From an uncultured bacterium (GTDB lineage: Bacteria > Zixibacteria > MSB-5A5 > CAIYYT01): a stretch of DNA of 64,000 nt. The position numbers and the translations under genes were made by a program. The notes under the pieces are model-generated. The model was not told where the DNA came from. It did no database searches and worked only from the letters and a program-made list of their open reading frames with translations. Positions 29,655-54,986 of the stretch are shown here, in pieces. The DNA lies in contig CAVSCK010000005.1 in assembly GCA_963726455.1 (NCBI GenBank), positions 384,001-448,000 on the forward strand, given 5' to 3'. Positions within the stretch are counted from its first letter, which is position 1, and each line of letters begins with the position of its first letter.

Positions 29655-29891
29655 GTAGGTCGGGTTCCGAACGGTTCCCAATTCTTTCTATCGCGCTGGC
29701 GTGGCGAGTGCATTCATCAATGCATATACAAGTGAAAGATAAGTGAGTGAGAAACCCGACATTTGACTGCAACTCATGAGAGAGCGTCGGGTTTCTCGTT
29801 CCATTTTCACATAGACGTTTATCCGCAGTCAAGGGCAGGCGACTTAGCTAAGGCGGATCATGAACAAACGTGGAATCGGAACCCTACCTAC
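29655..29891 (-). mobile_element. Orphan 237-bp long-loop REP doublet (REPIN-like), inverted relative to the copies flanking the RAYT
   Basis: GTAGGTCGGGTTCCGA-78nt-GAGAAACCCGAC-25nt-GTCGGGTTTCTC-78nt-TCGGAACCCTACCTAC, between convergent genes. Confidence 0.85.
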
Positions 29892-50580: not shown

Positions 50581-53115
50581 ATGTCCATTAGCAGAGAAAA
50601 TTTGGTTACGGTGTATCTCGAGGAGGAGATGAAGTCGTCTTACCTCGACTATTCGATGTCGGTCATTACCGCGCGCGCGTTGCCTGATGTGCGCGACGGC
50701 ATGAAACCCTCCAACCGGCGCATCCTGATCGCCATGAACGACCTGAATCTGTCGCCCGATCGGGCCCATCGTAAATGCGCCAAGATTTGCGGCGACACGT
50801 CGGGTAACTACCATCCGCACGGCGAACAGGTGGTATATCCCACGCTGGTGCGTATGGCGCAGGATTTCAATATGCGCTACCCGCTGGTCGATGGCCAGGG
50901 CAACTTCGGATCGGTCGACGGCGACGAAGCCGCGGCGATGCGTTATACGGAAGCGCGCCTGACGCCGATTGCGATGGAGATGCTGGCCGATCTCGAAAAA
51001 GACACCGTCGCATTTATGCCGAATTACGACGAAACGTTGCAGGAACCGCGCGTTCTGCCGAGCAAGTTCCCGAATCTCCTCTGCAATGGCTCCTCCGGTA
51101 TCGCCGTCGGTATGGCGACGAACATTCCGCCGCACAACCTGCGCGAAGTCGTCGATGCGCTGACGCTGATCATCGACAATCCCGAAACCAGTGAACTCGA
51201 ACTGTTGATGGCGGTATCGGGTCCCGATTTTCCGACCGGCGGCATAATCTATGGCCGCAAAGGAATCCGTGACGCCTATCTGACCGGTCGCGGCAAGTTG
51301 ATCGTGCGCGCCAAGGCCAATATCGAGCGGATGAAGAACGGCAAAGAGAACATCGTGATCTCGGAGATTCCGTACCAGGTCAACAAGTCGAATCTGATCC
51401 AGAACATCGCCGAACTGGTAAAGAACAAAGTAGTCGAAGACATTTCCGATCTGCGCGACGAATCCGACCGCGATGGCATGCGCATCGTGATCGAACTCAA
51501 GCGCGAAGTGCCGCCGCAAGTCGTGTTGAACCAACTGTTCAAGCACACGCAGATGCAGACGACGTTCGGCATCATTATGATCTCGCTGGTCGACGGCGCG
51601 CCACGAGTTATGCCATTGCGCGGGATGCTCGATGAATTCATCAAGCACCGCCATGAAGTTGTCGTTCGCCGCGCCAAATTCGAATTGAAGAAGGCCGAAG
51701 CGCGGGCGCATATCCTCGAAGGTCTTCGCATTGCGCTGGATAACATCGACGCCGTTATCACGCTGATTCGCAGTTCCAAAACCGTGCCGGAAGCCAAAGA
51801 GGGCTTGATGAAAAACTTCAAGCTATCGGAATTACAGGCGCAGGCGATTTTGGATATGCGGTTGCAGCGGCTGACCGGTCTCGAACGCCAGAAGATCGAG
51901 GACGAATACGCCGAACTGCTCAAGCAGATCGACTACCTCAAGAACGTGCTCGCCAGCAAAGAAATGCGGATGGCGATCATCAAGCAGGAGCTGGTCGAGC
52001 TGAAAGAGAAATATGGCGACGAGCGCCGCACCGAAATCGTCGACGAGACCGAAGAAATGACGATGGAAGATCTGATCGCCGAGGAAGACATGGTGATCAC
52101 GATCAGCCATCAGGGTTATATCAAGCGGCTGTCGACATCGGCCTACAGAAGGCAAAATCGCGGCGGCAAGGGCGTGATCGGAATCAACGTCAAGGACGAA
52201 GATTTCGTCGAGCACCTGTTTATCGCCTCGACGCATGATTATATCCTCTTCTTCACCACCAAGGGCAAGGCGTTCTGGATTAAGGTCCACGAAGTTCCGG
52301 TCGGCGGCAAATTGGCCAAGGGCAAACCGGTGGTCAATATGGTTGAGCTGCAAGAAGGCGAACTCGTGTGCGCATTCCTGCCGGTGCGCAATTTCGAGGA
52401 CGGCAAGTTCATCGTGATGGCGACCCGCAACGGCGTGATCAAGAAGACTGAGCTGTCGCAATTCTCGAATCCGCGCCGTGATGGTATCCGCGCCATCGGC
52501 ATTCCGGATGACGACTCGCTGATCGATGTGAATACTTCCGACGGCACCAACGATATTATTCTGGCCACGCATCTGGGCCAGGCGATCCGCTTCCCCGAGG
52601 ACAAAGTCCGCGCCATGGGACGCACGGCGTACGGCGTCAACGGCATCTCTCTTGAAGAAGGCGACTATGTCGTCAGCATGGTAGTGGTGAAACGCCAGAC
52701 GTCGCTGTTGTCGGTCACCGTAAAGGGCTTCGGCAAACGATCGGAAATTTCCGAGTATCGCGTCACCAACCGTGGCGGCAAGGGTGTGATCAACATGAAG
52801 ACCACCGACCGCGTCGGCAACGTGCTCGCGGTAAAGGAAGTGGTCGATCAGGACGGCCTGATGATCATCACCCAAAAAGGGATCGTGATCCGGCAGGATA
52901 TCAAGTCGATCAAGATCATCGGCCGCAACACGCAGGGTGTCAAACTGATCTCGCTCGATGAAGGCGACCAGGTCACCGACGTTGCCCGCATTGTCGGCGA
53001 AAACGGTAATGGTGAGGGTAATGGAAATGGCAACGGCAATGGTGATAATGGTGAGGGCGAAGAGCCGGAGGTTGAGGGGAATGGCGAAACAGTGCCGGAA
53101 GCTCCAGAGGCGTGA
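50581..53115 (+). CDS. gyrA: DNA gyrase subunit A
   Basis: [21 protein letters not shown], GyrA-box QNRGGKG, pinwheel blades, acidic GN-repeat tail. Confidence 0.97.
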
Positions 53116-53119
53116 TTTC

Positions 53120-53358
53120 GTAGGTCGGGTTCCGAGTCCTTTCTTGACTCGTCGTAGTGCATCCGAGTGAAATAGTCGCTTTCGACGAACATATAGTTTG
53201 ACGGCATCACGGGACGAGAAACCCGACATTCGATCATCGGGCAAGTGGAAATGTCGGGTTTCTCACTTGCGGCTCATTCTGCGACGGGTGACAAAGTTAA
53301 TGACTGTGATGTTTCGAATGCACAGCCACTTCAAGGCACCGTTCGGAACCCGACCTAC
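53120..53358 (+). mobile_element. 239-bp long-loop REP doublet, left flank of the RAYT
   Basis: GTAGGTCGGGTTCCGA-80nt-GAGAAACCCGAC-25nt-GTCGGGTTTCTC-78nt-TCGGAACCCGACCTAC. Confidence 0.9.
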
Positions 53359-53385
53359 GACTGACGCCTAGTCTATGATGGCACG

Positions 53386-53865
53386 ATGAAGACTTTAAGA
53401 CGTTACGAATTGCGCGACCGATTGTACTTTGTCACTGTCGTGACACATCACCGTGAGTCACTGCTCTTGATTGATCCGAGTCTATTTCGCTTATCGTGGG
53501 GAAGAGTGGAGCTTGTCGCGTGGGTATTGCTTCCAGATCATTTCCATGCGATCATCGAAGTTGGCGTGGACTCGATTTCCGATATGTTGCACGCATTCAA
53601 GATCAAGTATTCACGCAGATTTCGGGACAGCTTTCGCCCAGGCAGGGTCTGGCAGAATCGCTTCTGGGAGCATGTCATCCGTGACGAAGGTGATTTGAAC
53701 CGGCATACAGACTACATCCACTACAATCCGGTAAAGCATGAGATTTCACGGAGCCCGTTCGATTATCGACTTTCATCACTTGACGATTATTTTCGATGCG
53801 GACTCTATGAAAGAGACTGGGGAGTCAAAGAGCTGGTAACTTTCGAGGGAGAATTTGGCGAATGA
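53386..53865 (+). CDS. REP-associated tyrosine transposase (RAYT, Y1 HUH; E. coli YafM/TnpA-REP-like)
   Basis: YFVTVVT, AWVLLPDHFHAI (HUH), WQNRFWEHVIRD, DYIHYNPVKH (catalytic Tyr), GLYERDWG tail; flanked by GTAG repeats. Confidence 0.93.
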   Translation: MKTLRRYELRDRLYFVTVVTHHRESLLLIDPSLFRLSWGRVELVAWVLLPDHFHAIIEVGVDSISDMLHAFKIKYSRRFRDSFRPGRVWQNRFWEHVIRDEGDLNRHTDYIHYNPVKHEISRSPFDYRLSSLDDYFRCGLYERDWGVKELVTFEGEFGE

Positions 53866-53869
53866 TATC

Positions 53870-54108
53870 GTAGGTCGGGTTCCGAGTCCTTTGCTGACTC
53901 GTCGTAGTGCATCCGAGTGAAATGGTCGCTTTCGACGAACATATAGTTTGACGGCATCACGGGACGAGAAACCCGACATTCGATCATCGGGCAAGTGGAA
54001 ATGTCGGGTTTCTCACTTGCGGCTCATATAACCGGTGGTCCCAATGTTAATCTAATTGACCTTTCGTTCGCACTGGCACGGCAGACCACCGTTCAGAACC
54101 CGACCTAC
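53870..54108 (+). mobile_element. 239-bp long-loop REP doublet, right flank of the RAYT
   Basis: Direct repeat of 53120-53358 exactly 750 bp downstream; first ~158 nt nearly identical, second loop strongly diverged. Confidence 0.9.
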
Positions 54109-54134
54109 GTTTCGCAGCTCAGGAGACAGACTCA

Positions 54135-54986
54135 ATGACATCACCTGATTATTCCCCCAACGTCACCGCCTTTCGTGCCCTCCACCAATCCGGTTGCTTT
54201 GTATTGCCGAATCCGTGGGATATCGGGTCTGCGAAGATGCTGCAGCATCTGGGATTCAAGGCGCTGGCGACAACTTCGGCGGGATTCGCGTTTTCGCGCG
54301 GGTTGCCCGACTCGATGGCGGCTTTGTCGCTGGCGGACGTGCTGGCGCATATCAGGGAGATTGTCGCAGCAACACCGCTGCCGGTTAATGCCGATTTTCA
54401 GGCGGGATACGCAACTGATCTCGACGGCGTGGCAAAGAATGTGACGTCGTGTGTACAGACCGGTGTTGCCGGACTGTCAATCGAGGATGCTTCGGGAAAT
54501 CCGCAGAATCCTCTCTTCGATCGCGCCGTTGCAATCGAGCGTGTCCGCGCTACACGAAAGGCAATTGATGCTACTGGAACAGGTGTTGTTCTGACCGCGC
54601 GCTGCGAGGTGTATCTGTTCGGCAATCCTGATGCCAGACAAATTGCTCTTGATCGGTTGACCGCGTTTGCCGAAGCCGGCGCTGATTGCCTGTATGCACC
54701 CGGAGTGCGGGATATCAAAGTGATCGAAGAAATCGTCAAGGCTGTCGCGCCCAAACCGGTGAACGTGATTGCCTCGACGGCGCATCCAGATTTGACGGTG
54801 GCGAAACTTGCCGACGTCGGAGTACGTCGTATATCTGTGGGCTCGGCGCTGGCGCGGGTGGCCTGGAGCGCGTTTATCAGAGCTGCAGAAAGCATCGCCA
54901 GCACGGGAACGTTTGAGGCGTTTGCGGACATCACGCCGATTAAGACCCTCAACGAAATCTTTGACAGAAATTCGCGTAACCAATAG
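54135..54986 (+). CDS. Isocitrate lyase/PEP mutase family protein
   Basis: LPNPWD, LATTSAG, VNADFQAGY, GLSIED, AGADCLYAPG, RRISVG. Confidence 0.92.
   Translation: MTSPDYSPNVTAFRALHQSGCFVLPNPWDIGSAKMLQHLGFKALATTSAGFAFSRGLPDSMAALSLADVLAHIREIVAATPLPVNADFQAGYATDLDGVAKNVTSCVQTGVAGLSIEDASGNPQNPLFDRAVAIERVRATRKAIDATGTGVVLTARCEVYLFGNPDARQIALDRLTAFAEAGADCLYAPGVRDIKVIEEIVKAVAPKPVNVIASTAHPDLTVAKLADVGVRRISVGSALARVAWSAFIRAAESIASTGTFEAFADITPIKTLNEIFDRNSRNQ

Follow-up and report, generated by a model that had tools for sequence, protein, structure and literature searches.

A RAYT gene bracketed by probably cognate REP elements with expanded, length-fixed tips in a Zixibacteria genome

The repetitive extragenic palindromic (REP) elements described here surround a gene for a REP-associated tyrosine transposase (RAYT, or TnpA_REP) in a 64,000-nt stretch of DNA, hereafter the window, from an uncultured bacterium of the Zixibacteria (contig CAVSCK010000005.1, positions 384,001 to 448,000; G000:C5:384001-448000). 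The genome, G000, comprises 3.64 Mb in 5 contigs, with ~53.6% G+C. The RAYT open reading frame (ORF; 53386..53865, + strand, 159 aa, identified by profile and structure matches; coordinates are those of the window unless a genome or contig is given) is placed between two 239-nt blocks, 53120-53358 and 53870-54108, which lie 750 nt apart from start to start. This layout and geometry, described in an earlier note made from the sequence alone, were confirmed by the sequence and by a repeat search. The upstream gene gyrA (50581-53115) ends 4 nt before the left block, the right block starts 4 nt past the RAYT stop codon, and a gene of the PEP-mutase family (54135-54986) follows downstream. Each block opens with GTAG and a head box of 12 nt, separated by 80 nt from a tail box, also of 12 nt; beyond a 25-nt linker, the two boxes return inverted, first the tail box and then, after 78 nt, the head box, with CTAC at the end. 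TCAGAAC is present in the right block. The outer inverted repeat of a block is 18 nt long and perfect, as is the inner one of 15 nt, whose arms are 19 nt apart. The two blocks are unevenly alike, being 98% identical over their left 165 nt (53113-53277 versus 53863-54027) and 71% identical over their right 73 nt, which points to a recent duplication or conversion tract comprising the linker together with the first unit and the second unit's tail. The exact 750-bp spacing, which had been proposed as a feature of the system, is thus more probably a product of local duplication or conversion in G000; in the related genome G002, the RAYT is accompanied by single units, at another locus.

The basic unit of these repeats is each half of the 239-nt block, not the whole block. 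Genome-wide scans of G000 delimit it as an element of 104-109 nt with a GTAG head and a ..AACCCGAC tail. They gave 36 candidates, of which 30 have both ends, 5 have the tail only and 1 was judged spurious; at least 3 further units, with a tail one base longer, occur in hybrids with a short REP. Two types can be told apart: type 1, with the head ..TTCCGAGTCC(C) and the tail ..(G)GGACGAGAAACCCGAC, measures 107.8 +/- 1.0 nt (n=20), and type 2, with the head ..TTCCGAACG and the tail ..AGTGAGAAACCCGAC, measures 105.5 +/- 0.7 nt (n=10). The 239-nt blocks are tail-to-tail heterodimers with one unit of each type, and linkers are 20-27 nt long across dimers. In the left dimer, the type-1 unit (53120..53227, + strand, 108 nt, defined by sequence and family census) is composed of GTAG (53120-53123), basal stem arms (53124-53131 and 53220-53227, with a predicted stem probability of 0.99 when the unit is folded alone), an internal loop (CCGA 53132-53135, GAGA 53216-53219), a second stem identified by covariation (GTCC 53136-53139, GGAC 53212-53215) and a variable interior (53140-53211). 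The 25-nt linker between the two tails (53228..53252) forms with them a 15-bp inner hairpin with 19 nt between its arms, and is followed by the type-2 unit (53253..53358, - strand, 106 nt), whose head reads ..CCGAACG and whose tail reads ..AGTGAGAAACCCGAC on its own strand. The right dimer repeats this order, with a type-1 unit (53870..53977, + strand, 108 nt) that is 98% identical to 53120-53227, a 25-nt linker within the inverted repeat (53978..54002) and a type-2 unit (54003..54108, - strand, 106 nt) whose interior is ~71% identical to that of 53253-53358 across the 73 nt that were compared. Between the 8-nt stem halves lie 88 and 86 nt in the two units of a block. The window contains a third tail-to-tail dimer, located between convergent genes and made of a type-2 unit (29655..29760, + strand, 106 nt) and a type-1 unit (29786..29891, - strand, 106 nt) in which the second stem is altered on both sides (TTCCA/TGGAA).

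Chance does not readily account for these matches: with up to 1 mismatch allowed, the 12-nt head is found 6 times in the window where 0.10 occurrences would be expected, a count that none of 100 shuffles attained, while the head-gap-tail pattern gives 12 matches in the genome and 0 in a reversed control. When the gap is allowed to vary between 10 and 120 nt, the pattern finds 22 matches in G000, all of 103-107 nt, and none in the reversed control, which bears out the proposal that the internal segment is of fixed length. The 30 units of G000 comprise four tail-to-tail dimers (8 units) and 22 singlets. All are intergenic, apart from 3 that partly overlap crude ORF calls, and they are mostly located at gene 3' ends, with few between divergent genes. 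As in GTAG-type REPs, whose tag can also be GTGG, GTAG stands directly 5' of the stem foot, and the units are extragenic, dispersed, multi-copy and found as inverted dimers, at a copy number that is low for such a family. GTAG-type REPs are, however, palindromes of 20-40 nt with a short loop, and units of 104-109 nt with 86-88 nt between the arms fall outside this range. The view that these are the GTAG-headed REPs of a RAYT is supported, as is their length well beyond that of catalogued REPs. In G000, some units also form hybrids with a 35-nt REP. Two such hybrids of 165 nt, 933 nt apart (G000:C4:889649-890746; locus L009, 1150-2247), each composed of a 35-nt short REP with the same stem and an inverted long unit, lie around a gene for a small zinc-ribbon membrane protein, not a RAYT. 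Paired REP dimers around a gene are thus not specific to the RAYT.

The protein encoded between the blocks matches Pfam PF01797 (Y1_Tnp) with E = 4.6e-7 and NCBIfam NF047646 (REP-associated tyrosine transposase equivalog) with 109.7 bits, for a cut-off of 80; the IS200 model scores 19.5 bits, below its cut-off of 55. Residues 2-146 match PDB 4ER8, the E. coli TnpA_REP, with E = 8.2e-18, and H52-F53-H54, Y110, N114 and H118 align with H59-M60-H61, Y115, N119 and H123 of that protein, in which Y115 is catalytic and N119 and H123 are metal ligands (PMC3479197). The HUH motif and the tyrosine and metal-ligand residues are invariant or nearly so in 21 homologs. By its sequence, the RAYT qualifies as an intact homolog of TnpA_REP and stands nearer to it than to the IS200 transposases. 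It had been noted as about 10 aa shorter than E. coli YafM just before the HUH strand, which is roughly right: the chains measure 159 aa and, in 4ER8, 165 aa, and the alignment places 7 absent residues before that strand. Because 167-aa members of the wider family have 6 extra residues at this site, the shorter protein is, on present alignments, the mark of a subclade only. G000 has one full copy, the other Y1-like genes being at most 30% identical (tblastn), so that a single RAYT copy stands for its REP type, with four flanking units and REPs of the same kind dispersed genome-wide. The search for homologs gave 310 candidates, 292 of them at E <= 0.001; the named ones are mostly Zixibacteria metagenome-assembled genomes.

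Conservation within the units was assessed by aligning sequences from four genomes, 34 of type 1 and 17 of type 2 (one misplaced type-2 unit was later removed from the type-1 set). The alignments are almost gapless. Some 22 nt at each unit end are conserved in 80-100% of sequences, and the inner ~62 nt lie near the random level, with an ungapped pairwise identity of 0.30-0.35 in the interior versus 0.26 expected by chance. The conserved ends compose a two-tier foot: after GTAG comes a basal stem of 8 bp, then a 4x4 internal loop (CCGA/GAGA) and, above it, a second stem of 4-5 bp; the basal stem of one subfamily carries a bulged C or T. Pairing in the second stem is seen in 149 of 160 cells from 32 type-1 units, versus no more than 88 of 160 after the partner has been shifted by 1-3 positions, and three positions have changed on both sides (T-A to C-G; C-G to G-C; C-G to G-C, T-A or A-T), with G-T once in a second-stem pair. 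The independent covariation events are few, about four or five. The earlier note had left two pairings open for the four boxes of a block, 1-2 with 3-4 or a nested 1-4 with 2-3. Covariation in the second stem, together with the many singlets, speaks for the 1-2 pairing within a unit as the structure under selection.

Single units tested against interior shuffles gave z-scores of -2.2 to +1.3 centred on 0, i.e., the interior has no fold of its own. An Rfam scan of 52900-54300 returned no family, with three chance-level matches at E >= 1.4, far under the gathering scores, and a promoter and terminator consensus scan found no site inside the elements. By BLAST against the genome, the 30 interiors matched nothing beyond five paralogous unit pairs; these pairs, 88-98% identical in the interior, show recent copying. 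A structured RNA or DNA cargo was discarded in view of the z-scores centred on 0, and guide or capture in view of interiors that match only paralogous units. The idea of a cargo- or guide-like segment finds no support in an interior with neither conserved sequence, nor own fold, nor genome matches outside those pairs. A -35/-10 pair, or a ribosome-binding site with ATG, seen by eye inside units, was likewise discarded, as it is unconserved between copies and absent from the consensus scan. [quoted passage not shown] This explanation is extremely improbable. The ends are unequal, with GTAG at one end only, and their complementarity amounts to 8 + 4-5 bp with a 4x4 loop between, against the 15-30 bp quoted for MITEs in PMC3733652; inverted repeats of 15-30 bp are not found at the ends of the unit. 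Identical ends make an ordinary 45-nt REP elsewhere, and the interiors, which have no other matches in the genome, are inherited at orthologous sites. In annotation, intergenic repeats of 100-240 nt such as these could easily be mistaken for MITEs or small RNA genes.

Altogether, we consider it probable that the locus is a REPtron in which the RAYT is bracketed by cognate REPs that are expanded at the apex and fixed in length, the foot being read and the tip tolerated. As far as can be judged from sequence comparison, it is a known kind of locus and not a new RAYT class. The tip carried by this foot extends from a tetraloop, in the 45-nt form, to ~62-66 free nt, in the 107-nt form. By analogy with E. 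coli TnpA_REP, the RAYT would read GTAG and the foot on single-stranded DNA and would cleave and rejoin the DNA beside the foot, so that units or tail-to-tail heterodimers would occasionally be copied. The expanded tip would point away from the protein as a tolerated passenger whose sequence drifts freely; its length would be inherited from the founder and probably also kept, by some rule, through selection on the element or the host. The 750-nt geometry would then represent one dimer on each side of the gene, part of which has been recently homogenised. The E. coli enzyme is described as needing GTAG and a mismatched bulge, the upper half of the REP serving a structural, non-specific role (PMC8266576; PMC3479197). 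Since the conserved foot of the present units (8 bp, 4x4 loop, 4-5 bp) is about the size of the whole E. coli hairpin, an added tip would be a passenger that such an enzyme tolerates.

The likeness to the E. coli system of REPs, bacterial interspersed mosaic elements (BIMEs) and TnpA_REP (RayT/YafM, 4ER8) extends to most features of the locus. Both have a single-copy HUH/Y1 gene flanked by its own imperfect GTAG hairpins; in both, a mismatched internal loop separates the lower from the upper stem of the element, the REPs are of two subtypes that combine as inverted heterodimers (Y and Z REPs in E. coli BIMEs), and the elements are dispersed between genes. They differ in the length of the REPs, 104-109 nt here and 29-37 nt in E. 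coli (PMC8266576), and in their upper part, which is ~62 nt of free, foldless sequence here and a few pairs with a small loop in E. coli. Copies number ~30 here and hundreds in E. coli, and the present protein is 7 residues shorter before the HUH strand.

Several observations weigh against the interpretation of the locus as a foot-reading RAYT with its cognate REPs. The basal stem is invariant, hence uninformative on pairing, and has no support from covariation. When isolated units are folded with DNA parameters, the basal stem reaches P >= 0.5 in 17 of 30, with values near 0.98 for most units that lack the bulge and of 0-0.45 for those that have it; the 13 of 30 with P < 0.5 include all bulged-C/T units. 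Whole dimers at equilibrium are predicted to fold as nested structures, in which boxes 1-4 and 2-3 pair with P 0.79-1.0 and boxes 1-2 and 3-4 with P ~0 (both strands, all four dimers). In the predicted nested fold, GTAG would be buried in duplex, and in dimers the 1-2 pairing would have to form before the partner unit unwinds. The nested complementarity is not independent evidence, because it arises automatically from two similar units in inverted order. The number of copies, ~30, is low for a REP family, and, unlike in classical REPINs (paired REPs forming hairpins), singlets (22) outnumber units in dimers (8). The RAYTs of G000 and G002, which are 65% identical and found at different loci, may not be orthologs. 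Lastly, G003, a genome that is 100% complete, keeps units and has no close RAYT (best E = 2.9e-7), so that conservation of the foot may not depend on this enzyme.

The conserved feet of G003 would also be accounted for if the host kept the units as transcribed, stem-clamped elements of 3' untranslated regions, acting in mRNA stabilisation or termination, with the RAYT as their historical disperser. Such a role would suit the intergenic position of the units, which often follow a stop codon closely (by 4 nt in the case of gyrA and of the RAYT) and are mostly found near gene 3' ends, seldom between divergent genes; G-T is also found once in a second-stem pair. We regard it as very unlikely, given that orientation relative to the upstream gene shows no clear bias (14 units in the same direction, 9 opposite and 7 without a gene end within 200 nt), that the elements contain no terminator- or promoter-like site and match no Rfam family (best E 1.4), and that the interior has no fold of its own. 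Relative to the GC-skew strand, the units divide 15 and 15, which is no usable bias.

The distribution of the units among relatives was examined by scanning related genomes for heads and tails, as had been recommended. The exact head-gap-tail pattern occurs in G000 and in 3 of 3 other genomes of the same genus; none of 37 further genomes from the family or class has it. In public genomes, 64 of 80 RAYT loci have at least 2 GTAG hairpins of a common stem. The shortest REP class measures at most 38 nt in 52 of these 64; three of the loci, with apparent lengths of at least 140 nt, may contain pairs of separate elements. The closest relatives of the RAYT of the window are flanked by shorter REPs that share the stem: in loci L013 and L014 (58-60% aa identity) the flanking REPs measure 45-49 nt and have the same 8-nt stem, in locus L017 they measure 51-54 nt, and G002 has a second RAYT (51% identity) beside which a 35-nt REP of this stem adjoins a long unit. 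An exact search for the 16-nt head in metagenome contigs gave at least 125 stretches with at least 134 heads, at least 117 of them with a tail within 260 nt. Among the matches listed, lengths counted from the head fall at 27 nt (1), in the 30s (12, of which 8 at 35 nt), in the 40s (71, of which 42 at exactly 45 nt), at 50-58 nt (26), 68 nt (1), 77 nt (2) and 106-109 nt (4, one probably unrelated). The 45-nt metagenome form has the identical foot, i.e., CCGA, GTCCGCC, a tetraloop, GGCGGAC and GAGA, and the 45-nt counterpart of type 2 is found in metagenome locus L172, so that both partner types are ~61-63 nt longer in this genus than their 45-nt forms. An account of the length classes by helical phase was rejected as post hoc, as lengths of 47, 51, 58 and 68 nt do not fit. 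The same foot with varied tips amounts to a natural experiment, which suggests that recognition by the enzyme is limited to GTAG and the foot.

A maximum-likelihood tree of 39 RAYTs, from which two translated rows with stop codons were left out, places the RAYT of the window in a clade of 8 (support 98/99), and every REP detected in that clade has the stem of the present units, at lengths of 35-109 nt. These results speak against the new RAYT/REP class that the earlier note had envisaged, as the protein passes NF047646, the other members of its 8-member clade have REPs of 35-54 nt, and a 45-nt REP has the identical foot. Medium or long classes (43-51, 62-64, 76, 55-59 and 60-61 nt) occur in several other branches of the tree. 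A Lyngbya RAYT locus in the set has REPs of 60-61 nt. Since they arise on several branches, expansion of the tip is, on the evidence of this tree, recurrent, and the 107-nt class is its extreme, limited to this genus.

Comparison of orthologous sites within the genus provides information on how the units evolve. Orthologous units of G002 and G003 are 100% identical at their ends and ~65-75% in their interiors (97% in one), with flanks at 85-90%. Such units show hardly any indels, or two of 1 nt each that offset one another, as in type-2 units that both stay at 106 nt. The RAYT homolog of G002 (65% aa identity) is found at a different locus, a 2.1-kb segment between hydratase-like and biotin-carboxylase genes (L101, G002:C21, 1717-3813), in the order type-1 unit, 362-aa gene, type-2 unit, RAYT, type-1 unit, the bounding type-1 units being direct. 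The product of the 362-aa gene weakly resembles the N-terminal domain of type I restriction R proteins, with a score under the cut-off. In G003, the sequence at this site amounts to 57 nt, with a head-like relic but no RAYT (L241, G003:C113), and in G001 a 54-nt REP sharing the tail (L240, G001:C234) takes the place of the 109-nt unit of G002. Downstream of gyrA, G001-G003 have other GTAG REPs and other genes, not the RAYT locus; in G003, G002 and G001 (L246, L247 and L248) a classical short GTAG REP with the stem GGGCGCAC or GGGCGACC was noticed just past gyrA. With the G002 homolog elsewhere and other REPs at the gyrA sites of relatives, the REPtron is, as these assemblies indicate, not at a fixed genomic place within the genus, and length classes can differ at one site.

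These data bear directly on the possibility that the interior acts as a length ruler, i.e., that its length is functionally measured, for example as the head-tail distance required by a RAYT multimer or by a host DNA-binding or DNA-wrapping protein on duplex, copies of altered length being lost. Length SDs of 1.0 and 0.7 nt despite an almost randomised interior, almost gapless multiple alignments and the two cancelling indels of the G002 and G003 type-2 units, both of 106 nt, all fit such a measurement, as do the discrete length classes of the metagenomes and the existence in G000 of three families of tight length (61-64 nt in 12 copies, 98-100 nt in 3, and 104-109 nt). Elements of only 35, 45-58 and 77 nt with this foot are nevertheless common and presumably functional, a 109-nt unit in G002 corresponds to a 54-nt REP in G001 at an orthologous site, no partner protein is known, and common descent with few indels may also explain the lengths, which leaves the ruler unlikely in our judgement. 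Inheritance from a founder with few indels, selection for transposability and a true need for length are all compatible with the tight length. In any case, tight length combined with free sequence offers a testable handle on the constraints of REP architecture.

The units can further be compared with other REPs and with elements of similar organisation. In the catalogue of GTAG REPs by Di Nocera et al. (2013, PMC3733652), stems measure 5-13 bp and loops 2-20 nt, with values of up to 27 nt for Bradyrhizobium. The present units share with this catalogue GTAG at the stem foot, an 8-bp stem within its range, the association with a tyrosine transposase and tail-to-tail and head-to-head dimers, heterodimers included, and depart from it in the 88 and 86 nt between the basal arms. 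The search model of a REP survey is given as loops of 2-5 nt, or a second stem with 1-10 nt (Quentin et al. 2018, PMC6006769). With 88 and 86 nt between the arms, the units would not be found by searches of the catalogue type, and models with loops of 2-5 nt, or at most ~27 nt, miss whole families in little-studied phyla. The parts of the REP literature that were consulted, including for Zixibacteria, contain no REP of this loop size and no Zixibacteria REP study, supplementary REP tables lying outside the search.

In the REPINs of P. fluorescens SBW25, conserved ends stand 71 or 110 bp apart around a less conserved spacer (Bertels and Rainey 2011, PMC3116915). The present elements resemble them in having ends and a spacer of fixed distance, ~100 nt overall and served by a RAYT, and the 239-nt dimer is predicted to form one long nested hairpin, as a REPIN does. 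However, a REPIN consists of two complete inverted REPs, has GTAG on each strand and folds along its whole length, whereas the 107-nt unit has one GTAG and its two ends make one foot; its interior is unpaired, unconserved and almost randomised, and dimers hold only 8 of the 30 units, outnumbered by singlets.

Integron attC sites are single-strand folded recombination sites and can be compared by analogy only. As would be the case for the present units, conserved paired ends and unpaired bases are recognised, and the central part is free in sequence. Their enzyme is the tyrosine recombinase IntI, they have no GTAG and their lengths vary between cassettes, whereas the length is fixed within the family here and the elements are unlinked to gene cassettes. 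The attC sites are mentioned in PMC8266576.

A scan of G000 for GTAG with a 7-nt stem revealed further families of this architecture, for which a GATG control gave only two families of 3 copies. The family with the stem GTCGAAACCCC has 12 copies of 61-64 nt with an 11-nt stem and variable interiors, at G000:C4:35800-37081, G000:C5:588413-588567 and 8 other places, all outside the window. Two tail-to-tail dimers of this family, 1130 nt apart, lie around two paralogous ORFs of ~150-185 aa. The family with the stem GTCAGGAGCCC has 3 copies of 98-100 nt with an 11-bp stem and unrelated interiors (G000:C3:445962, G000:C5:458251 and G000:C5:607286), and that with the stem GTCAAAACC has 4 copies of 27 nt, one of which adjoins another Y1 gene. 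The stems GTCGAAACCCC and GTCAGGAGCCC are those of 26-28-nt REPs beside RAYTs of other Zixibacteria; in G000, tblastn with the RAYT of the window found no close RAYT for either family, the other genes being at most 30% identical. Taken together, the three independent long-loop families of G000, with ~38, 72 and 62-66 nt inside, form the pattern behind the idea of clamped spacers, in which selection would act on the length, and not on the sequence, of a single-stranded segment clamped by a conserved foot. We hold this to be rather improbable; if true, it would imply a length-measuring step in RAYT action or in a host process.

Some minor observations were made on the same elements and their surroundings. 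A motif of ~10-14 nt, CGACACGC[CT]T, often followed by CTCC, is seen 10-25 nt before the 3' arm of bulged type-1 units, and directly before the 3' arm in the 61-64-nt family (G000:C5:511494, C3:22131, C3:446214, C4:35837, C4:36967, C5:588529 and others); ~9-10 of its 75 genome matches are in REP units. The bulged type-1 units (17, four genomes) have interiors with 39% C and 16.5% G on the GTAG strand, and the unbulged ones 24% C and 24% G. At G000:C3:64753-64919, three tandem elements of ~83 nt start with GTGGGAGAGGG and end with the complementary CCCTCTC, and a fourth copy is located at C4:683140. Immediately upstream of the left dimer, at 52995-53112, short direct repeats encode a GyrA C-terminal tail of ~40 residues rich in Gly-Asn and Gly-Glu repeats, and similar tails are found in relatives.

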